DNA of 64,000 bases from a bacterium (lineage in GTDB: Bacteria > Patescibacteriota > UBA1384 > 2-12-FULL-50-11): assembly GCA_021463485.1 (NCBI GenBank), contig JAJTYJ010000003.1, positions 88,380 to 152,379 of the forward strand. Reading direction: 5' to 3'. Below the pieces are notes generated by a model. That model had not been told where the DNA came from. It was given only the letters and a program-made list of their open reading frames with translations, and did not search any database. Every line of letters begins with the position of its first letter. The first letter of the stretch is position 1. Positions 24,112-61,779 of the stretch are shown in pieces. Made by a program: the position numbers and the translations under genes.

Positions 24112-26202
24112 ATGGCACGACAATACCCACTCGAGCGCGTCCGAAATATCGGTATCATCGCTCACATCGACGCAGGTAAAACAACAGTTTCAGAACGTAT
24201 TCTGTTTTACACCGGTAAAAACTACAAAATCGGCGAAGTGCACGAGGGTGCGGCTACGATGGACTGGATGGAACAAGAACAAGAGCGCGGCATTACCATT
24301 ACCGCCGCGGCTACTACTTGTTTTTGGAAAGATAACTCGATTAACATTATCGACACACCAGGTCACATAGACTTTACTATCGAAGTTCAGCGCTCACTAC
24401 GCGTGTTAGATGGTGCTGTTACCGTTTTCGACGGCGTTGCGGGTGTAGAAGCGCAAAGCGAAACTGTTTGGCGACAAGCCGACAAGTACAAAGTTCCGCG
24501 AATTTGCTTTGTTAATAAGCTCGATCGTATCGGCGCCGATTTTAAATTTGTCGTTAAAACGATCCAAGATCGTTTAGGCGCTAAAACTGCCGTTATTCAA
24601 CTACCTATCGGTCAAGAAGACCAACTTAAGGGAGTGGTTGATTTACTCGAAAATAAAGCCGTTGTCTGGAAAGACGATTTAGGTAAGGATCCGATCGTCG
24701 AAGACATCCCGGCGGATATGAAAGACGAAGTCGAGGAGTATCGCAGTAAGCTCATCGAGCAGATCGCCGAAACCGACGAAGCATTACTAGAAAAGTACTT
24801 CGCCGGCGAAGAGCTAACGGTAGCCGAGTTAAAGGCGGCGCTGCGAAAAGCCGTTATTGCTGTTCAAGTTTTCCCAGTTTTAGCTGGTTCGGCGCTTAAA
24901 AACAAAGGTGTTCAAACGATGCTTGATGCCGTCATCGACTTTTTACCAAGTCCGCTCGACGTTCCGGCGCCGCACGGTACCGACGTTAAAGACCCAGAGA
25001 AAGTCATTGAGCGAAAAGTTGACGACTCCGAGCCGTTCACAGCCCTGGCGTTTAAAGTTGCAACCGACCCGTTTGTTGGCTCGCTAACATTCTTCCGCGT
25101 TTACGCTGGCAAGATTACCGCCGGTTCGTATGTATTAAATAGTTCAAAAGGCGAAAAAGAGCGCGTTGGTCGCATTGTTCGTCTTCACGCTAACTCCCGC
25201 GAAGACGTAACCGAAGTTTACGCCGGTGAGATCGCGGCTGCTGTTGGTTTGAAGAACTCAACAACCGGTGACACGCTTTGCGCCGAGAACGCTCCGATTA
25301 TTCTCGAGCGAATTAACGTTCCGGAACCAGTTATTAAAATGTCGATCGAGCCAAAAACCAAAGCCGATCAAGAAAAAATGGGCGTGGCGCTACAACGCTT
25401 AGCTGCCGAGGACCCGACTCTTCGCTTAAGCCAAGACGAGACAACTAACCAAACCTTGATCGAAGGTATGGGCGAGCTTCACTTAGATATTATTGTCGAT
25501 CGCATGCGACGCGAGTTTAGTGTTGAAGCTACGAAGGGCCAGCCGCAGGTTGCCTTTAAAGAAGCAATTACCCGAGCCGTTAAACAAGAAGGTAAATACG
25601 TTAAACAAACTGGTGGTCGCGGTCAGTACGGCCACGTCTGGCTCGAAATCGAACCGCAAGAACGCGGTAAGGGGTTTGAGTTTGTTAATAAAGTTGTCGG
25701 TGGTGCGATCCCACGCGAGTTTATTTCTTCTGTCGAAAAAGGAGTTAAAGACTCTGTTTCCAAGGGTGTTATCGCCGGGTATCCGCTCGTTGACGTTAAA
25801 GTTACCGTTTACGACGGTTCGTACCACGACGTCGACTCTTCAGACGTCGCGTTCCAAATCGCTGCTTCGATGGCGATGAAAGACGGCGTCAAAGCCGCTG
25901 GCCCGGTTCTACTCGAACCAGTTATGAAAGTCGAAGTTACAACTCCAGAAGAGTTCTTTGGCTCGATAGTCGGCGATCTTAATAGTCGCCGTGGCCGCAT
26001 TATGGGCTCCGAAGACCGCGGCAATTCTCGAGTAGTTGATGCGATGATTCCGCTCGCTGAGATGTTTGGTTACATTACCGACCTACGCGGCATGAGCCAA
26101 GGCCGAGCCAGCTTCACAATGGAATTCGACCATTACGAAGAGGTTCCACGCAACATCGCCGAGGGAATAATTGGCAAATCTGGTGCTAAAGCCGCCGCGT
26201 AA
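24112..26202 (+). CDS. fusA: Elongation factor G
   Basis: [22 protein letters not shown]; 696 aa. Confidence 0.97.
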
Positions 26203-26301: not shown

Positions 26302-27483
26302 ATGGCAGCAACATTCGAACGCACAAAGCCGCACGTCAACGTTGGTACCATCGGTCACGTCGACCACGGTAAAACTACGTTAACGGCAGCTATCACAAAC
26401 ACACTCGCCGACAAGGGTTGGGCAGAGAAAAAGGCCGTTGATCAGATCGACAACGCCCCAGAAGAAAAACAGCGCGGTATTACTATCGCGACGTATCACG
26501 TTGAGTACGAGTCGGAGAAGCGACACTACGCTCACGTCGACTGTCCAGGACACGCCGACTACGTTAAGAACATGATTACCGGTGCCGCTCAAATGGACGC
26601 CGCTATTCTCGTGGTCTCTGCTCCAGACGGTCCGATGCCACAAACTCGTGAGCACATTCTGCTTGCGAAGCAGGTTGGTGTTCCGTACATCGTCGTCTTC
26701 TTAAACAAGTGCGACCAAGTTTCTGATCCAGATCTTCTCGAGCTCGTTGAAGAAGAAGTTCGCGATCTTTTAAACAAGTACGAGTACCCAGGTAAAGACA
26801 CACCGATCATTAAGGGCTCAGCTCTTAAGGCTATCGAAGGCGACGCTGACGCTAAGAAAGCAATCTTCGATCTTATTGAAGCGCTCGATTCTTACGTCCC
26901 AGAGCCAGTTCGTGAAACTGACAAACCTTTCTTGATGCCAGTAGAAGACGTCTTCTCAATCAAAGGCCGTGGTACGGTTGTTACCGGTCGTGTTGAGCGC
27001 GGTACCGTTAAGGTTGGTGAAGAAGTTGAAGTTGTCGGATTGAATGACACTAAGAAAACAGTTGTTACCGGAGTAGAAATGTTCCGCAAGCAGCTCGATT
27101 CTGGTCAAGCTGGCGATAACGTTGGTCTTCTTGTTCGTGGCTTAGAGCGCACAGATGTTGAGCGCGGCCAGGTTCTTTGTAAGCCAGGTTCGATTACTCC
27201 ACACACCGAGTTCGAAGCTGAGTGTTACATCCTTAAAAAAGAAGAAGGCGGACGACACACCCCATTCACCAAGGGTTACAAGCCTCAATTCTACTTCCGA
27301 ACCACTGATGTGACCGGAGAAGTTGAGCTTCCAGGCGACGCCGAGATGGTTGTCCCAGGCGACACTACAACCTTCAAAGTTAAACTCATCCAGCCAATCG
27401 CGATGGAAGAGAAACTCCGCTTCGCTATCCGCGAAGGTGGTAAGACGGTTGGTGCCGGTATCGTTACCAAAATTATCAAATAA
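26302..27483 (+). CDS. tuf: Elongation factor Tu
   Basis: [27 protein letters not shown]. Confidence 0.98.
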
Positions 27484-27504: not shown

Positions 27505-27837
27505 ATGGCCCAAAAGACCGCTCGCGAAGCTGCCAAATCCAGCATCCGCATCAAGCTTAAAGCGTACGATTACCGAGTAATCGATCGTTCCGCCAAGAAA
27601 ATTATCGAGGCGGCCGAGCGGACAGGGGCTATTATTGCCGGACCTATCCCGTTACCAACTGAGAAATCATTAGTAACGGTCAATCGCTCCACGTTCGTCC
27701 ACAAAGACGCACGCGAGCAGTTCGAAATTCGTATTCACAAGCGCATTATCGATGTCTTGGATCCAAATCCAAAAACCCTTGATGCCTTGATGAATCTCGA
27801 TCTCCCAGCCGGAGTGGATATTGAGATAAAAACGTAA
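27505..27837 (+). CDS. rpsJ: 30S ribosomal protein S10
   Basis: S10 family; GGAAGG RBS. Confidence 0.96.
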
Positions 27838-27863
27838 GAGTCTCACATTGAAACGCAAAAAGT

Positions 27864-27886
27864 CCGCTCACAAGAGCGGGTTTTTT
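27864..27886 (+). terminator. Rho-independent terminator immediately after rpsJ
   Basis: CCGCTC-ACAA-GAGCGG hairpin followed by GTTTTTTG. Confidence 0.75.
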
Positions 27887-27895
27887 GTAGAATTA

Positions 27896-27924
27896 TTGTC
27901 TAAAATAATTTTTCAGAGTATTAT
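27896..27924 (+). promoter_or_regulatory. Putative promoter TTGTCT-17-TATTAT for the GC-rich small-ORF unit
   Basis: 17-nt spacer; predicted TSS falls at the base of a CCTGGC-UUCG-GCCAGG tetraloop hairpin (27934-27949) that precedes a GGAGG RBS. Confidence 0.4.
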
Positions 27925-27973
27925 TTCCGTGTCCTGGCTTCGGCCAGGCGAATCCTACATGGAGGCACAAAAG

Positions 27974-28189
27974 ATGAATGGTTCGAACGTTCTTGAACGC
28001 ACTCACGCTGAGCCTAGCTCTTCGCTGGTGCGAGACATCAATTCGATTCAACCCGGGTCGACGGAACTGCTCAACGAGGGGCAGGCCCGAAAGCGACTCA
28101 CCGACACCCATACGATGCGAGCCCGAGAGCTCTGCCCTGCCCAGGGCAAGCGAGCGGCCGGTGGATTCCTCCAGCGAATCTTCGGCTAA
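27974..28189 (+). CDS. Small hypothetical protein (71 aa) in a GC-rich segment
   Basis: GGAGG RBS with 8-nt spacer to ATG; ~58% GC against ~45% in the surroundings; low-complexity composition, so coding status uncertain. Confidence 0.35.
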   Translation: MNGSNVLERTHAEPSSSLVRDINSIQPGSTELLNEGQARKRLTDTHTMRARELCPAQGKRAAGGFLQRIFG

Positions 28190-28262
28190 CGGGCGACCAA
28201 CGACGTGGGAGTTGTTCGTCGCTTTGAAGCGACAGTTCGAGAGACCGAAGAAACGTTTCCCG

Positions 28263-28532
28263 ATGAATTTTCCGTGGGTTTGTGGATGTGGCAAAGCCGG
28301 CTTCCCCGGCTGTAAAGACCGCGAGCACTTCTGCGAGCGCGTCTATCTAGCACTACTCGACTACCACCAACATCAGGAAACGAAATCCCGGAATCTCTGC
28401 TACTTCGTTGACGGCGGCGAACAACTTCTACGTGTCGACCAATTCAGTGCCAGGCGTATACAGCTACTCGAGGCAGACCTCGAGAAAGCTGAGACGATCT
28501 TGCGCAGAATGCTATCCGACAACCCCGCTTAA
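28263..28532 (+). CDS. Small Cys-rich hypothetical protein (89 aa from ATG; frame open upstream to GTG 28161/TTG 28212)
   Basis: WVCGCGKAGFPGCKDREHFCERV then a helical-looking C-terminal half; stop codon sits inside the terminator hairpin. Confidence 0.35.
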   Translation: MNFPWVCGCGKAGFPGCKDREHFCERVYLALLDYHQHQETKSRNLCYFVDGGEQLLRVDQFSARRIQLLEADLEKAETILRRMLSDNPA

Positions 28533-28551
28533 CCACAGCGGGGCTTTTCTT
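28523..28551 (+). terminator. Rho-independent terminator
   Basis: 7-bp stem CCCCGCT/AGCGGGG with 7-nt loop followed by CTTTTCTT. Confidence 0.7.
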
Positions 28552-28601
28552 GACAATAGAGCCTAAAGCACGTTGACTGTATAAAAATGGGTGGAGGGAG
28601 A

Positions 28602-29435
28602 ATGCACGAACAAATTAGGCCGCAGGCACACGTAGCGACGTGGGCGATTTCGGTGTTGATGGTGATACTAGCGGCGACGCTTGGTACAACTAACGATATT
28701 ACAAACGCAACTGAAGTCTACACAGCTCCGGACGGTACGAAGAAATACTTTACGTACGAGGGGAGCGGCGGGTTTAAGGCGCCAGACGCTTGTTTAAAAC
28801 CGACGGCAGAGCAGCAGGTGCAAATTGATCAAATTACAGTACTCAAAAAAGAGTTATTGGTGTTACAAGAGAAAGATACTTCGCAATTTACAGCTGAAGA
28901 AAAGGCTGCACACGAAGCTAAAATCCAAGAGTTATTAACTAAAATTAAAACAGCAGCTGGTACGGTGTCGACAGTAAAACCAGGGCCAACCGCAGAATGT
29001 AAGGCAGCGGTGGTGGCCGGCAATATTAAACTAATGACTGCACAGCTAGAACAAACAAAATCAAAACTAATTGTGAGCGTGGACAACGTAAGCGCCAAAA
29101 TAATAAAGGTTGAAGATGCAATTGCAAACATTAAGCCGACAACCGAGAATCAACCAATTCTAACTGCAATTACCGCTGATATTAACGCCGCAAAGCTTAA
29201 CCTAGCCATCCTTTCCGACTTTCTAACCAAGACACAATCTCAAATGGAATCGTTTTTAACGCTTTCAAAAACCGATCCTAACAAAGCGTACGATTCAATT
29301 AGAACCTTTAGGGTTGGCGGAGATAATCTGAAAGCTACAAAGGCAAGTGAAGGTATAATTAGCGCGTTTACGAGCCTGAAAGCCAATATCGAGCGCTTAA
29401 TCGAACTTACGGAGGGTAGTAATGGAAATATCTAA
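28602..29435 (+). CDS. Membrane-anchored coiled-coil hypothetical protein (277 aa)
   Basis: GGAGG 4 nt before ATG 28602 (the track's ATG 28587 lies inside the RBS); N-terminal TM VATWAISVLMVILAATLG; the remainder is alpha-helical and Lys/Ala/Thr-rich. Confidence 0.55.
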   Translation: MHEQIRPQAHVATWAISVLMVILAATLGTTNDITNATEVYTAPDGTKKYFTYEGSGGFKAPDACLKPTAEQQVQIDQITVLKKELLVLQEKDTSQFTAEEKAAHEAKIQELLTKIKTAAGTVSTVKPGPTAECKAAVVAGNIKLMTAQLEQTKSKLIVSVDNVSAKIIKVEDAIANIKPTTENQPILTAITADINAAKLNLAILSDFLTKTQSQMESFLTLSKTDPNKAYDSIRTFRVGGDNLKATKASEGIISAFTSLKANIERLIELTEGSNGNI

Positions 29436-29703
29436 TTCACCAGTACCGGCATCGCAGCCGCACTCAAAAGTCTGGTTAATGGTGACGCTCGTAGTAGCAG
29501 TAGTTGCAGCAGGTTTAATTTGGTATTTCTTGTATCCGAAGACAGAGGATTCAAGCACGCAGACCCCCGAGTCCCAAAAAACCGTCAAAAATGCAGTTGA
29601 TGAGACGCTAGTTGCAGCAAAAAACGATCTGAATACCGTTAATGTCGAGGAGTTAAAAGTTGCGGTCGACGAGTTAAAATCCACCCTTGACGCTTTTGAA
29701 TAA
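29422..29703 (+). CDS. Small membrane-anchored hypothetical protein (93 aa)
   Basis: GGAGGG RBS; overlaps the end of the upstream gene; single TM plus an acidic helical tail. Confidence 0.5.
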   Translation: MEISNSPVPASQPHSKVWLMVTLVVAVVAAGLIWYFLYPKTEDSSTQTPESQKTVKNAVDETLVAAKNDLNTVNVEELKVAVDELKSTLDAFE

Positions 29704-29709
29704 TAAAAT

Positions 29710-29727
29710 GCCCCGACGGTGCGGGGC
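29710..29727 (-). terminator. Hairpin terminator serving the minus-strand gene 29728..30189 (bidirectional context)
   Basis: GCCCCG-ACGGTG-CGGGGC; U-rich only on the minus strand (complement of TAATAAAAT). Confidence 0.6.
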
Positions 29728-30189
29728 TTAGAGATCGGCGTAGATCTCGGGTGGGACAACGAGGTCGAGCTTGTTTCGTTCGATCGCTTCAGCGATAACT
29801 TGCTCTCGGGTCATCTTGTAAACAACCATTCTTGTTGCAATCCAGCGGCAGATCGTCATGGCCGGTGAGAGACCGAGACTGATCATTACAACGGCGCTAG
29901 CTGCAAGGAGTTTTACGATCTCGCCGTGGTTAATCGAACGTAACTCGATTAAAAGATCGCCCACTGTCTTATAGAGCGCCATCGTCTCGTGCTCGATACA
30001 AAACCGGCAAGCTGTGTGCCCGTGTGGCTGAAAGATCATATGCGGTTGCGAATGAATAGGGCAATAAATACCTTGTTCGAGCGCGCATGATACACACGAG
30101 AACGGCGATTGCGAGAGATCAACTTGCTCGCAGAGTTCGGGAATCGTAACGACGATATCTGGTTCTTTCTGACAATACCGACAAACCAT
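29728..30189 (-). CDS. Zinc-ribbon (3x CxxC) membrane-associated hypothetical protein
   Basis: GGAG RBS 7 nt upstream of internal ATG 30189 (MVCRYCQ…); CRYC, CVSC and CRFC motifs; hydrophobic C-terminal segment; the track's start at 30276 lies inside a hairpin. Confidence 0.5.
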   Translation of the reverse strand: MVCRYCQKEPDIVVTIPELCEQVDLSQSPFSCVSCALEQGIYCPIHSQPHMIFQPHGHTACRFCIEHETMALYKTVGDLLIELRSINHGEIVKLLAASAVVMISLGLSPAMTICRWIATRMVVYKMTREQVIAEAIERNKLDLVVPPEIYADL

Positions 30190-30385
30190 AATGTAACTCC
30201 AAGGTGCTTTGCGTATTCTATCGAAAATGACCCGTAAAATATAGACAGATATGGATAAAAACCCTCCCGTCAGCATGATCGGGAGGTTGGAGATGAGAAG
30301 GGGTAACCTCTCGAGTTGAGTATACGCTCAAATATTAACCTCGTTTAGAGCTTGATTATTTCTGGGTAATTATTAAGGTGAAGTT

Positions 30386-30784
30386 ATGAACGGTTACGTA
30401 GAGAATGTCGAACTTGAGACACAACAGAATACCAACTTTCGCAAAGTAGTTTATACCGGCAAGCACTCGCAGTTGGTGCTGATGAGTCTGTTACCTGGTG
30501 AGGAAATTGGAGAAGAAGTTCACGAGGACGGCGATCAATTTTTCCGTGTTGATGACGGCGTCGGCAAGGTTGTAATTGATGGTGTAGAAACGGAGCTGAC
30601 TGACGGGAGTGCTGTGGTTGTTCCGGCTGGTGCTACTCATAACGTTATCAACACTTCGGAAACCGAGCCATTGAAGCTGTATACGATATACAGCCCTCCG
30701 CACCACCGCGAAGGAGTTGTCCACGCGACTAAAAACGACGCCGAAAACGATAACGAAGAGTTCGACGGTATAACTACGGAATAA
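30386..30784 (+). CDS. Cupin-domain protein (132 aa)
   Basis: Cupin-2 barrel motifs (G-x5-HxH-like: EEVHEDGDQFF; VVVPAGATHNVIN). Confidence 0.65.
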   Translation: MNGYVENVELETQQNTNFRKVVYTGKHSQLVLMSLLPGEEIGEEVHEDGDQFFRVDDGVGKVVIDGVETELTDGSAVVVPAGATHNVINTSETEPLKLYTIYSPPHHREGVVHATKNDAENDNEEFDGITTE

Positions 30785-30789
30785 AAAAA

Positions 30790-30807
30790 CCCGACCTTTC
30801 GGTCGGG
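30790..30807 (-). terminator. Terminator hairpin for the minus-strand gene 30833..31366
   Basis: 7-bp stem CCCGACC/GGTCGGG with UUUC loop; A7 tract on the plus strand gives a U7 tract on the minus transcript. Confidence 0.7.
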
Positions 30808-30832
30808 CGCGGCATTGCCGCAGGTTGTACTC

Positions 30833-31366
30833 CTAATTGGAGCTGGGTGCCGGCTCTTCGGCCGGTTTTGGGGAATCGCCCTCGCTTCTTCGTCGCCTCA
30901 ACTCGTCGAGGTCGATCTCAACCAGGTCGCCCATGCCGCCAAGTAATGCGCCGAGCAGACCGCGGCCGCGCTCTCTGCGCATGGCATCGCGGAATCGCTG
31001 GCGATCGGTGGTGACGACGTGGTAGCCGACACCGTTACAGTTGCACTCTTCGACTTCCCACTTGCCGTCGACGGCGAGCATCTCGGTCAGTTTCTCGCGA
31101 CCGACTTGGAAGTGGAGGAAATGGACGACTGAATCAGCGATTTGGTAGTCCTTCGCTTTGTCGGACGAAAAGATGCCGGCCTTGAGAACCATGTCGCAGA
31201 TTCCCTGACGGTGATCTTCGGGGATGTGCTCGTGCTTGCGTGCCTCCAGGCTTGCTGAAACCTGATTGATAGCATCTTGACTTGGCTCGTCTGAAACAAA
31301 AGTGTTCAGAGCGTTGCGGAACAGTTCCCACCCTGGGGTGGTTGGTGCAGCGAATGTGTTTTCCAT
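30833..31366 (-). CDS. Hypothetical protein (177 aa), apparently strongly expressed
   Basis: AGGGGGAG RBS ~10 nt upstream of ATG 31366 (MENTFAAP…); the track's TTG start at 31444 lies in the promoter; charged C-terminal tail; no family recognised. Confidence 0.55.
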   Translation of the reverse strand: MENTFAAPTTPGWELFRNALNTFVSDEPSQDAINQVSASLEARKHEHIPEDHRQGICDMVLKAGIFSSDKAKDYQIADSVVHFLHFQVGREKLTEMLAVDGKWEVEECNCNGVGYHVVTTDRQRFRDAMRRERGRGLLGALLGGMGDLVEIDLDELRRRRSEGDSPKPAEEPAPSSN

Positions 31367-31415
31367 AATGTTAGCTGGTACTCCCCCTGTGAAAGTATTC
31401 ACAAGTTGCCGAAAA

Positions 31416-31444
31416 ATTATAGTACGGACTCGGTTTATTGTCAA
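31416..31444 (-). promoter_or_regulatory. Perfect-consensus sigma70 promoter TTGACA-17-TATAAT on the minus strand
   Basis: Minus strand reads TTGACA ATAAACCGAGTCCGTAC TATAAT; positioned ~45 nt upstream of the RBS of gene 30833..31366. Confidence 0.7.
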
Positions 31445-31451
31445 GGTATTA

Positions 31452-31478
31452 ATAATAAAAACCCGCCGTGAGGCGGGG
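31452..31478 (-). terminator. Rho-independent terminator after the ketosynthase gene
   Basis: CCCGCC-GTGA-GGCGGG hairpin followed on the minus strand by a U tract. Confidence 0.65.
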
Positions 31479-31483
31479 AGGTC

Positions 31484-32584
31484 TTACGGCCAACGATAGG
31501 CGATGAAGTTGTAAACGACACCGCCACCGAATGTGGCGAAGATAAGTTGGTCGTTTCGTTGGAAGTGGCCGAGCTCGGCGTAATGCGCGAGCGTACTAAA
31601 CACCGAAGCAGAAGATTGGTTACCGCGCTCAGCGATCCGATTAAGCACCCGCTCGGGCGGTATGCCGATAGCTTCGCCGAGTCGTCGAACCATTCTCCAA
31701 TTGCCGTTGTGTGGTAGTAGGAACGTTCGTTCGTCGACAGAAATACGCGAGTCAACTATGAATTGCTTGAGTTTTTGAGCGATCGGTCCGATTACCCACT
31801 GGTAGATCTCCGTACCCCTACCTTCCATTGAAGCGTTCAATGCTGGAAAACGACGGTGGTCTGGGTGGACGCCGATCCCGCGACTGCGAGTGGTGCCAGA
31901 TAGGCTGCCATCAGCTCGAGAGATGAAATCTTGTACACCGAAGTTTCTGTTATCGGAGAAACCGGCATATACAACAACTGCGCTACCGCCGTCGCCCCAA
32001 AGCAGAGCGTTCTCGTCCATATGGTCGTTGCAACGCGAACCGATCGTCTCGCCGACTGCAACCAAAGCGTACATATCGCAGCCAGTTTGGAGTGCTCGAA
32101 CAGTTTCGATGAACGCTTGTGTGCCAGAACAGCAAGCTGCTGAAACATCGAACGCTTCAGCATCAGGGATGTTAAGCAAGTGTTGCAACTTGGCAGCGCA
32201 GCTTGGATAGAGATCGTCTGGTGTAGAACCGCCACTAACAATGAGGTGGATTTTCTCTCTCGAGAAGTTCGGGTTATTACGCTCAGCTACAGCGATCGCT
32301 CGTTCAGCTGCTTGTCGGGCTAGTTCTGTTGAATCGGCTTCAGGTATGTATTGTCTGGTGACGATCCCGAGTTTTTTGGTAACGGATTCGGTAGTATGAG
32401 CTCGAACTTTTTCAAGCTCAAGCCTGTACCTCTCGCGCTCGTGCTCGGATTGTTGAGAACCGACAACTAATGGTTCGAGCTTGCGCTCGATTGCCCGCAA
32501 AACGGTCGGGTTGTCGACAGAAAAACGATCTTCGGTTGGAGTATCGCCCCAGCCGATGATCTGGATTGGGTGGGAAAGTCGCAT
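31484..32584 (-). CDS. FabH-like 3-oxoacyl-ACP synthase III family ketosynthase (366 aa)
   Basis: AAGGAGAAG RBS; Cys-His-Asn triad context (FDVSAACCSG, LPHNGN, RGNQSSASV); thiolase fold. Confidence 0.75.
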   Translation of the reverse strand: MRLSHPIQIIGWGDTPTEDRFSVDNPTVLRAIERKLEPLVVGSQQSEHERERYRLELEKVRAHTTESVTKKLGIVTRQYIPEADSTELARQAAERAIAVAERNNPNFSREKIHLIVSGGSTPDDLYPSCAAKLQHLLNIPDAEAFDVSAACCSGTQAFIETVRALQTGCDMYALVAVGETIGSRCNDHMDENALLWGDGGSAVVVYAGFSDNRNFGVQDFISRADGSLSGTTRSRGIGVHPDHRRFPALNASMEGRGTEIYQWVIGPIAQKLKQFIVDSRISVDERTFLLPHNGNWRMVRRLGEAIGIPPERVLNRIAERGNQSSASVFSTLAHYAELGHFQRNDQLIFATFGGGVVYNFIAYRWP

Positions 32585-32795
32585 GAGGCTTCTCCTTATT
32601 GTTCAGGTTCAAACCTGTAGTGCAATTTTGGCACGATCTTCAAAAGATATCCAGGTATTGCAACAGATAAAAAAATTCAGTATTTTTCCAAAACGGTCGC
32701 CAGGACCGTCAAGTGGGCCAAGAGCGGCTGCTTGGCAGAGTTGCCACTTGCTCCGGCGGGTTGCGGCGCCACAATCGCCGCGCCCGCTTATTTTC

Positions 32796-32824
32796 TTGAC
32801 TTACTCTCGAAAAAGCCTCATAAT
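32796..32824 (+). promoter_or_regulatory. Near-consensus promoter TTGACT-17-CATAAT driving rplC and the downstream ribosomal operon
   Basis: 17-nt spacer; ~50 nt upstream of the rplC ATG. Confidence 0.65.
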
Positions 32825-32876
32825 TGGTAAGCATATTCAACCTGTTACGAGTTGAGTGTTAAATATTTAATTCTAA

Positions 32877-61555: not shown

Positions 61556-61706
61556 TTAAACCCATACGGTGGTCTTGTCAAATTCTCCCGCCCTACTGAC
61601 GTGCGACGTCAAATGGTTCACCATTTACGTACTCAGTAATGACCATCAGACCCATAAATAGCATCACAAACCGTATGAAAAACGTTTCATGTACGAAACA
61701 AGTCTG

Positions 61707-61779
61707 TGGACCGTACCGGGTTCGAACCGGTGACCTCTTCCATGCCATGGAAGCGCGCTACCAGCTGCGCCAACGGCCC
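61707..61779 (-). tRNA. tRNA-Ala (anticodon GGC); CCA not encoded
   Basis: Cloverleaf GGGCCGT-T-G-GCGC-AGCTGGTA-GCGC-G-CTTCC-ATGGCAT-GGAAG-AGGTC-ACCGG-TTCGAAC-CCGGT-ACGGTCC-A; G3:U70 alanine identity pair; GGTTCGAA T-loop. Confidence 0.85.

Follow-up and report, generated by a model that had tools for sequence, protein, structure and literature searches.

Two previously undescribed protein families overlap in frames 0 and +1 of a compact Patescibacteria gene cassette, with a candidate shared start site

In Thermus, rpmH, which encodes L34, is nested out of frame in rnpA, and translation of the two genes begins at AUGGAUG behind a single GGAGG (Feltens et al. 2003, via PMC9841429). In 2022 this pair was called the only described bacterial example of its kind apart from AUGUG sites; such ambiguous initiation sites, AUGUG or GUGUG, are found in E. 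coli in pqiA, tamA and narQ (PMC9841429). Here we describe a cassette of two overlapping genes from a member of the Patescibacteria, also called the Candidate Phyla Radiation (CPR). It lies directly downstream of rpsJ in a 64,000-nucleotide stretch of contig JAJTYJ010000003.1 (hereafter the window; all positions count from its first letter). The cassette corresponds to a monocistronic-looking mRNA of ~620 nt that carries two overlapping protein genes and is not an RNA gene. We call the upstream open reading frame (ORF), of 71 codons, ORF-A and the downstream, Cys-rich one ORF-B. ORF-B is read in the +1 frame of ORF-A.

We compared the window with L001, a relative at 83% amino-acid identity, and calculated the ratio of nonsynonymous to synonymous substitution rates (omega) by the Nei-Gojobori method. 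Between 27974 and 28186, 16 of 26 substitutions fell on codon position 3 of the ORF-A frame, and between 28190 and 28529, 44 of 68 fell on codon position 3 of the +1 frame. The last change that is synonymous in frame 0 is at 28183 and the first that is synonymous in frame +1 at 28202. Omega was 0.22 for ORF-A in its own frame, 1.26 when the same nucleotides were read in the frame of the 184-aa database protein, and 0.05 for the ORF-B domain. The switch of periodicity at the ORF-A stop and the low omega values therefore identify both short ORFs as real coding sequence, and the substitution pattern shows ORF-A (27974–28189) and the ORF-B domain (28191–28529) to be under purifying selection. A preliminary description of this DNA had suggested two short coding ORFs here. 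This was borne out, as substitutions between homologous loci preserve codons in both. It had also drawn the Cys-rich frame as open from at least 28161 to 28532. The end point holds, but the frame is open well before 28161, from ATG 27978 to the stop codon at 28530–28532.

Gene callers report a single 184-aa protein here, since the +1 frame is already open at ATG 27978, 4 nt beyond the ORF-A start at ATG 27974. Judged by its substitutions, the N-terminal ~70 residues of that protein are an out-of-frame read of ORF-A. In the databases it forms a cluster (P0001) of 19 members named 'hypothetical protein', and one JGI record (P0036, 123 aa) starts at GTG 28161. Among population variants, the changes in the +1 N-terminal part are silent in the ORF-A frame, as with I22T, where the ORF-A codon goes from AAT to AAC, and no variant creates a +1 stop.

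ORF-A and ORF-B were shown to be two previously undescribed families. When the ORF-B domain was scanned with HMMER against 1.84e9 representative proteins, 21 clusters were recovered. ORF-A is rarely annotated, with 8 proteins of 75–91 aa among 5.8e9, and we located it in DNA by tblastn. An ORF-A homologue lies directly upstream of ORF-B at every locus with DNA (14 of 14 lineages; hidden Markov model E=1.9e-30). These 14 lineages, all from metagenomes or CPR genomes, are the family set used throughout. The full ORF-B alignment was too diverse for finding loci and a trimmed version was used for this step. Proteins are ~35–50% identical across lineages, and the cassette family is rare, having been found so far only in CPR-type metagenomic contigs. 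The window ORFs had no match in Pfam or NCBIfam, and 13 conceptual sequences joining ORF-A and ORF-B had none in Pfam, PHROGs or PADLOC. PDB sequence profiles matched neither family, and neither had relatives in viral contigs or in plasmid and phage collections.

In ORF-A the N-terminal third is variable and is followed by a conserved core, I..I.PG..EL..EG..R.L.DTHTMRAR.LC..QG..AA.GFL. AlphaFold2 modelled this protein poorly on its own, with a predicted local distance difference test (pLDDT) score of 54.8. ORF-B consists of a P/S/T-rich linker and a helical domain with the motif W-x-C-x-C-x3-5-GFPGC-x4-(H/C)-F-x2-RVxLAxxD(Y/F/W)HQ. In an alignment of 22 sequences C41 was invariant, C31 and C33 were conserved in at least 90%, and position 46 was His in 15 and Cys in 7. 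Since swapping of His and Cys is typical of a metal ligand, ORF-B looks zinc-binding, and we infer from these residues that it binds zinc. The small zinc-binding, Cys-rich product that had been proposed thus gained three invariant or near-invariant Cys and a His/Cys-alternating position as its putative ligands. The AlphaFold2 model of ORF-B, which the preliminary description had named as a check, was confident (pLDDT 93.5; predicted template-modelling score 0.85): a ligand loop (residues 23–43) leads into a long helix (44–66) that opens with the His, and the fold also has two further helices and a beta-hairpin. The putative site has the four conserved Cys/His ligands of a treble-clef-like arrangement, divided between a knuckle and the N-terminus of a helix. 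A Foldseek search of PDB and BFVD with this model returned nothing below E=0.3.

Each of the 14 lineages had ORF-B next to ORF-A and in its +1 frame. The ORF-A stop, which may be TAA, TAG or TGA, lies 6–19 codons before the first ORF-B helix, and the stretch between the two is P/S/T-rich. From the ORF-A stop onward, and ahead of any start codon, codons of the +1 frame change synonymously and their residues are conserved. The sister lineages L008, L013 and L019, for example, read KPPSTAELY, RSPSTARVY and NGLPSTAELY (consensus (K/R/N)..PSTA(E/R)(L/V)YEALK), the L019 junction differing from the other two by an in-frame 3-nt indel.

No start codon of ORF-B was conserved among the 14 lineages, and every lineage had at least one canonical start in the +1 frame. 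Counted from the ORF-A stop, candidate starts lie at -17 (L015, L017), -26 (window, L001, L016), -35 (L009), -38 (L011), -68 (L005, L008), -107 (L019), -137 or +22 (L013) and +25 (L010), and L014 has only one, at -233. The GTG at 28161 is conserved in L001, and the same aligned position holds ATG in L016 and GTG in L015. Starts just before the first ORF-B helix (TTG 28212 in the window, GTG in L013 and L010, ATG in L009) were considered and rejected. Sister lineages carry CTG or CTC at such sites, so these apparent starts are simply codons for hydrophobic residues.

How, then, is ORF-B translation initiated? We tentatively favor a double start behind one Shine-Dalgarno (SD) sequence, with ORF-A nested out of frame in ORF-B, a reading that we rate as possible and somewhat short of an even chance. 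Transcription would start ~7 nt after TATTAT, and the UUCG hairpin at the 5' end would protect the mRNA. Behind the single strong SD, GGAGG, translation would begin at either of two start codons that differ in frame and are spaced by 4 nt (AUGAAUGG). AUG 27974, at 8-nt spacing, would direct abundant synthesis of ORF-A, and AUG 27978, at 12-nt spacing, would give less of a 184-aa long form of ORF-B. This long form would comprise ~70 S/T/P/R-rich residues read from ORF-A in the +1 frame, the P/S/T linker and the zinc-binding helical domain. In lineages with +1 stops in ORF-A, ORF-B would start instead at a lineage-specific ATG or GTG 17–110 nt before the ORF-A stop.

Several observations point to this arrangement: (i) in the window, two AUGs a few nt apart and in different frames (27974 and 27978) follow one GGAGG (27961–5), and the short ORF (27974–28189) lies within the long one (27978–28532); (ii) in 9 of the 14 lineages no stop interrupts the +1 frame anywhere in ORF-A, counting from the ORF-A ATG, and eight of these nine have an ATG or GTG at +4 or +7 after the ORF-A ATG, behind the same SD; and (iii) such a start is present in none of the five lineages that have +1 stops. 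The sequence at this site is AUGAAUGG in the window, L001, L010 and L018; L014 has ATG at +7, and L008, L013 and L019 have GTG at +4 or +7. Counted by clade, the start was present in 5 of 6 with an open frame vs 0 of 5 with stops (Fisher P ~0.013, calculated by hand). In L014, the shared-site start is the only canonical start in ~106 open codons. A stop-free +1 frame was seen in 6 of 11 independent lineages, vs 1.4 expected from family codon usage when per-lineage probabilities were summed by hand.

Synonymous sites point the same way. In every pair tested, the synonymous divergence of ORF-A was below that of ORF-B, at about half its value. The proportion of synonymous differences (pS) was 0.27 in ORF-A and 0.64 in ORF-B between the window and L001 (P=4e-5), and 0.18 and 0.49 between L008 and L013 (P=1e-4). 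As third positions of frame 0 are second positions of frame +1, a low synonymous rate in ORF-A is what dual coding predicts. Codon bias as the source of the low ORF-A rate was rejected, because GC content at third codon positions (GC3) is equal in both ORFs.

Other observations weigh against the shared start. The +1 N-terminal extension shows no purifying selection at the sequence level (the omega of 1.26 given above), and its composition does not differ from that under synonymous resampling. Under the most conservative null, with the codon usage of ORF-A only, 2.95 open frames were expected vs the 6 observed, which brings the openness test to only P=0.036. Five of the 14 lineages cannot use the shared start, and the mechanism is therefore not universal; in L009 the +1 frame is open, yet its first start comes only at +37. 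Spacings of 11–15 nt between SD and start exceed the optimum. mRNA structure could account for part of the suppressed synonymous divergence of ORF-A, and the proposed initiation at 27978 is inferred by comparing sequences.

The cassette is a discrete unit. Homology to L001 starts near 27894, at the -35 box, and decays after 28551, at the terminator; the left-hand neighbor genes in L001–L004 differ from those in the window. Homology thus limited to 27894–28551 marks a discrete, conserved unit, and its signals support an autonomous transcription unit with a candidate promoter, 5' stem-loop, SD and terminator (Table 1). These borders coincide with those given in the preliminary description, and its GC estimate of ~58% was matched by the 0.583 measured at 28000–28399, vs 0.45–0.49 in the flanks. 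GC3 of the cassette is 0.63–0.66 vs 0.45–0.54 in rpoB, fusA, tuf and rpsJ. The promoter, the GGAGG site, the 71-aa ORF and the terminator were all present as it had listed them, and so was the 5' hairpin, one base to the left of where it had been placed.

The promoter matches the sigma-70 consensus at 9 of 12 positions, which taken alone is at chance level in a consensus scan (8 sites in 3 kb vs 3.1 expected). In L001 both hexamers are kept (TTGCCT / TATTAT) despite changes in 9 of the 17 spacer bases. The transcription start is predicted near 27931. Nine of the 14 lineages carry GGAGG or AGGAG 5–11 nt upstream of the ORF-A ATG; four have a weaker 4-nt match and one has none. An antisense ORF at 27893–28294 was discarded, being interrupted by stops in L001 and other lineages and not conserved.

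Table 1. Coordinates of the cassette features in the window
Feature	Position	Strand	Basis or remark
Sigma-70-type promoter (candidate)	-35 TTGTCT 27896–27901; 17-nt spacer; -10 TATTAT 27919–27924	+	consensus scan, L001 comparison
5' stem-loop CCUGGC-UUCG-GCCAGG	27933–27948	+	sequence; in minimum-free-energy and centroid folds
Shine-Dalgarno GGAGG	27961–27965	+	8 nt before ATG 27974, 12 nt before ATG 27978
ORF-A, 71 aa	27974–28189	+	periodicity, omega 0.22, homologues in 14/14 lineages; core I..IQPGSTELL.EG..R.L.DTHTMRAR.LC..QG..AA.GFL
184-aa +1-frame ORF as in databases	27978–28532	+	first ~71 codons overlap ORF-A out of frame
GTG, +1 frame, alternative ORF-B start (123-aa form)	28161–28163	+	26 nt before ORF-A stop
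ORF-A stop TAA	28187–28189	+	selection moves from frame 0 to frame +1 here
ORF-B conserved domain, 113 aa	28191–28529	+	omega 0.05; homologue clusters
21-bp long-range helix	5' arm 28203–28223; 3' arm 28413–28433	+	minimum-free-energy and centroid folds
Putative zinc site: W29, C31 (28281–3), C33 (28287–9), GFPG, C41 (28311–3), H46 (28326–8)	28275–28328	+	113-aa-domain numbering
Intrinsic terminator, stem CCCCGCU / AGCGGGG	28523–28543, U-run to 28551	+	scan

Stem-loops at the 5' end can stabilize bacterial mRNAs, as in the ompA 5' untranslated region (UTR). The 5' hairpin of the cassette is probably such an mRNA-stabilizing element: like the ompA-type stabilizers, it is a GC-rich tetraloop hairpin a few nt from the predicted 5' end and upstream of the SD. 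In L001 it reads CCUGGC-CUUG-GUCAGG, with one G-C pair changed to G-U and a different loop. The equivalent position in the 5' UTR is occupied in L015 (CCGUCC-UAGG-GGACGG), L018 and L005 by hairpins of unrelated sequence. Across lineages its position is conserved and its sequence is not; unlike the ompA case, the element is known here from sequence. At the other end of the unit, the ORF-B stop TAA falls in the loop of the terminator (CCCCGCU-UAACCAC-AGCGGGG), and terminator-like hairpins follow ORF-B in most lineages. In L008 (CCUCC-UAGCU-GGAGG), L013, L009, L010 and the window, a small GC hairpin carries the ORF-B stop in its loop or at its foot, and some of the lineages with such a hairpin have a second, true terminator after it.

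The cassette mRNA folds with a minimum free energy of -248.8 kcal/mol (z=-5.6 vs dinucleotide shuffles). Comparison with synonymous-codon shuffles gave a negative z in all but one of the 14 lineages (mean -1.8; -3 or lower in five; window -3.9), and z differed among close relatives (L013 -3.1, L008 -1.65, L019 +0.1). Predicted folds, too, differ even between close relatives. A 21-bp helix joins the region just after the ORF-A stop to the interior of ORF-B. L001 and L007 retain every one of the 21 pairs; the pair 28212/28424 goes from U-A to U-G in L007 and to C-G in L001, and three more changes are wobble-compatible. The helix has a duplex energy of -34.7 kcal/mol in the window vs -32.1 in L001. 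Across the whole predicted fold, 29 varying pairs were kept in L001 and 21 broken, vs 23.5 and 30.6 expected (P ~0.01). Long-range pairing of the 5' end with the middle of ORF-B was rejected as a feature of the whole family, being significant only in the window clade and L011, and conserved structure is limited to the 5' hairpin, the terminator and the clade-specific 21-bp helix. Speculatively, the 21-bp helix, given its length, could serve as a substrate for RNase III, or it might take part in coupling. The two internal stem-loops named in the preliminary description are present in the sequence. A selected hairpin over the GFPGC codons (GCCGG-CUUCC-CCGGC), one of the two, was rejected on synonymous resampling (combined P=0.07), and the named internal hairpins are largely by-products of the encoded codons.

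Two other ways of translating ORF-B have to be set against the shared start. If ribosomes ending ORF-A initiated ORF-B anew at GTG 28161, by local re-scanning or unfolding, the product would be a 123-aa protein and the openness upstream would be accidental. Phage MS2 lysis and similar cases are established examples of ribosomes reinitiating close to a stop codon. The conservation of this GTG in L001, the +1 starts at its aligned position in L016 and L015, its use in one public annotation and the near-stop starts of L015, L017, L009 and L011 all suit such coupling; in L016 and L017 the near-stop start is the sole one available. The layout of the 21-bp helix, whose 5' arm begins 14 nt after the ORF-A stop, would be compatible with coupling through structure. 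We nevertheless consider this explanation rather unlikely: no SD precedes 28161, and the start position is not conserved. In the sisters L008, L013 and L019 the nearest internal starts are at -68, -137 and -107, no two of them shared; L014 has no internal start and L010 none between -119 and +25. A start somewhere within 70 nt is expected by chance (~5% per codon). Neither the suppressed synonymous rate along the whole of ORF-A nor the association of open frames with +4/+7 starts is explained by coupling.

A programmed +1 frameshift, or short hop, at the ORF-A stop would likewise yield ORF-B, here as a 185-aa ORF-A-linker-ORF-B fusion besides free ORF-A, one base being skipped at GGC-UAA-C. 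Frameshifting of this type at stop codons occurs in bacterial prfB, at CUU-UGA-C with an upstream SD, and in eukaryotic antizyme, at UCC-UGA-U with a pseudoknot. As in both, the cassette has a conserved 0/+1 pair (14 of 14 lineages) whose 0-frame stop stands exactly where the +1 coding signal begins, as the junctions of L008, L013 and L019 illustrate. This stop always precedes the first ORF-B helix by the 6–19 codons noted above, the P/S/T-rich junction is typical of an interdomain linker, no start codon is conserved, and ORF-A alone is not predicted to fold. Unlike prfB and antizyme, the cassette has no conserved slippery codon, stop identity or stimulator. Nine different last codons occur (GGC, GGA, GUC, GCC, CGC, CAG, GCU, UUC and AAG), none able to re-pair in +1, and they are followed by all three stops and a variable base. 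The hairpin before the ORF-A stop is not selected (P=0.14 and 0.37 vs synonymous resampling), and SD-like motifs are inconsistent. Among 21 ORF-B clusters and 8 ORF-A matches there was no in-frame A-B fusion. Since every lineage has a canonical +1 start, recoding is not required, and it could do without an open +1 frame upstream. That ORF-B is never self-initiated, and that a family-wide, Patescibacteria-specific +1 shift without a slippery site operates at the ORF-A stop, is accordingly doubtful in our judgment. A literature search for frameshifting or recoding in Patescibacteria/CPR found no papers. A shift of this kind, if real, would add a new class to the known bacterial +1 frameshift signals, perhaps one tied to the reduced CPR ribosome, and would raise the interest of the cassette.

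The preliminary description had also raised the possibility of a structured noncoding RNA rather than, or in addition to, coding sequence. The low folding energy against both kinds of shuffle, the compensatory change in the 21-bp helix and the excess retention of pairs in L001 would fit a primarily structured or dual-function RNA in which the ORFs are incidental. Strong codon periodicity and low omega in both ORFs speak against it, as do proteins that stay conserved at ~35–50% identity across lineages whose RNA folds differ, the uneven z-scores among close relatives and the codon-driven internal hairpins. A covariance-model scan with Rfam gave nothing at the gathering threshold in the window and nothing relevant by E-value in 27800–28650, where the best value was 0.36, on the rpsJ terminator. 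We regard this reading as highly improbable; the RNA structure is an accessory of the mRNA.

What the two proteins do can be addressed only with low confidence. ORF-A and ORF-B may act as a complex, with ORF-B as a folded, zinc-containing core and ORF-A folding only on binding, and the shared start site might set a fixed co-expression ratio of the two products. A two-subunit zinc-protein complex with its stoichiometry set at initiation is our guess, in keeping with a pair that always co-occurs, has its expression linked by an enforced arrangement, and of which ORF-B folds confidently alone in AlphaFold2 and ORF-A does not. Genomic contexts of the cassette vary among lineages. The preliminary description had offered a toxin-antitoxin-like pair. 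In a type II module of addiction or defense, which would suit any of the translation models, ORF-A would be a labile antitoxin made in excess and ORF-B the toxin. The architecture fits: as in type II operons, two small overlapping genes of suitable size and order lie between their own promoter and terminator in an island context, the upstream product being disordered alone and the downstream one compact. The variable island, with restriction-modification (R-M) and Panacea-type toxin-antitoxin genes nearby in a relative, the patchy and rare distribution and a GC3 unlike that of host genes also agree with it. Unlike type II systems, the cassette matches no toxin, antitoxin or defense model in Pfam, NCBIfam or PADLOC, no DNA-binding domain is recognizable in ORF-A, collections of plasmids, phages and viruses lack the family, and in the window's clade the cassette keeps a syntenic chromosomal place. 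We hold a toxin-antitoxin module to be unlikely, and a toxin/antitoxin-like or regulator/partner pair is as far as our best guess goes.

The cassette lies in a ribosomal-protein gene cluster. The window carries rpoB, rpoC, rpsL, rpsG, fusA (24112–26202), tuf (26302–27483) and rpsJ (27505–27837), and ~5 kb of unrelated genes separate rpsJ from rplC (32877). The S10 operon is thereby split at 27838–32876, with seven non-ribosomal genes between rpsJ and rplC, and this segment looks like a variable island within the cluster. rpsJ has its own terminator hairpin (~27865–27886), readable on both strands, and the cassette follows directly 3' of it, at the left edge of the ~5-kb insertion. The same DNA, 99% identical over the cassette, is present in BOKZ01000001.1 ('Patescibacteria group bacterium BroJett034'). 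In the relative L001–L004, the site before rplC keeps the cassette, a cupin gene and a KASIII gene, with PMSR added. Further upstream this relative has an R-M system, HNH, HTH+SocA/Panacea and PDDEXK genes and a trypsin-like protease.

Other genes of the island were noted in passing. The kept pair corresponds to a small cupin at 30386–30784 (+) and a FabH/KASIII-like ketosynthase at 31484–32584 (-; NF006829, E=1.4e-46, below the family cutoff); in a CPR genome, such a pair of lipid or polyketide type is unusual. Two orphan genes at 28587–29703 (+), of 282 aa and 93 aa with a 14-nt overlap, are present in the window and not in L001, and their products are predicted to have membrane-anchor or coiled-coil character. 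At 29728–30276 (-), a 182-aa orphan ORF with the CxxC-type pairs CRYC, CVSC, CPIH and CRFC had no family match except weak zinc-ribbon noise; L001–L004 have a (-)-strand gene of 153–207 aa at the corresponding position. A second GC-rich (~60%) orphan ORF of 203 aa, at 30833–31444 (-), had no Pfam or NCBIfam match. By Rfam and ARAGORN, tRNA-Ala(GGC) at 61706–61779 (-) is the sole RNA gene of the 64-kb window. In L005 (5567–6085) and L018 (3883–4404), a His_Phos_1 (histidine-phosphatase) gene lies shortly 3' of the cassette and an orphan gene of ~360 aa lies 5' of it, a neighborhood that is possibly recurrent; L018 additionally has a TrwB-like coupling protein.

Public databases enter this locus as one hypothetical protein of 184 aa, with ORF-A hardly ever annotated, whereas the actual content is two new small-protein families. 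What is new is the conserved nested +1 architecture and the misannotation that results from it; the gene arrangement itself is known but very sparsely documented, here with two orphan families. As CPR genomes are tiny, a conserved and strongly signaled orphan cassette in a ribosomal-protein gene cluster is likely to be functionally relevant. Its 14 natural variants of an obligatory 0/+1 overlap offer a comparative system in which to study how bacteria divide initiation between two frames or, with lower probability, a new kind of +1 recoding. If the shared start is correct, one family switches between short overlaps and a double start behind one SD, a type for which Thermus rnpA/rpmH is the only experimental description.

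How close is the cassette to the described systems? In E. coli AUGUG and GUGUG sites, as would be the case here, one ribosome-binding region splits initiation between overlapping frames. There the two starts share one base and most of the alternative ORFs are short, whereas the starts of the cassette are 4–7 nt apart and both products are conserved proteins. The likeness to Thermus rpmH/rnpA extends further. In both, a longer ORF wholly encloses, in its 5' part, a small ORF of another frame, one GGAGG precedes two AUGs 4 nt apart (AUGGAUG in Thermus, AUGAAUG in the cassette), and relatives exist in which the genes are merely adjacent or overlap briefly, as in L015–L017 of the cassette family. 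Translation of both frames was demonstrated experimentally in Thermus and is predicted for the cassette, whose proteins, from two orphan families, are unrelated to the rnpA and rpmH products. Unlike in Thermus, the arrangement recurs in several divergent clades of the cassette family, where it alternates with internal starts.

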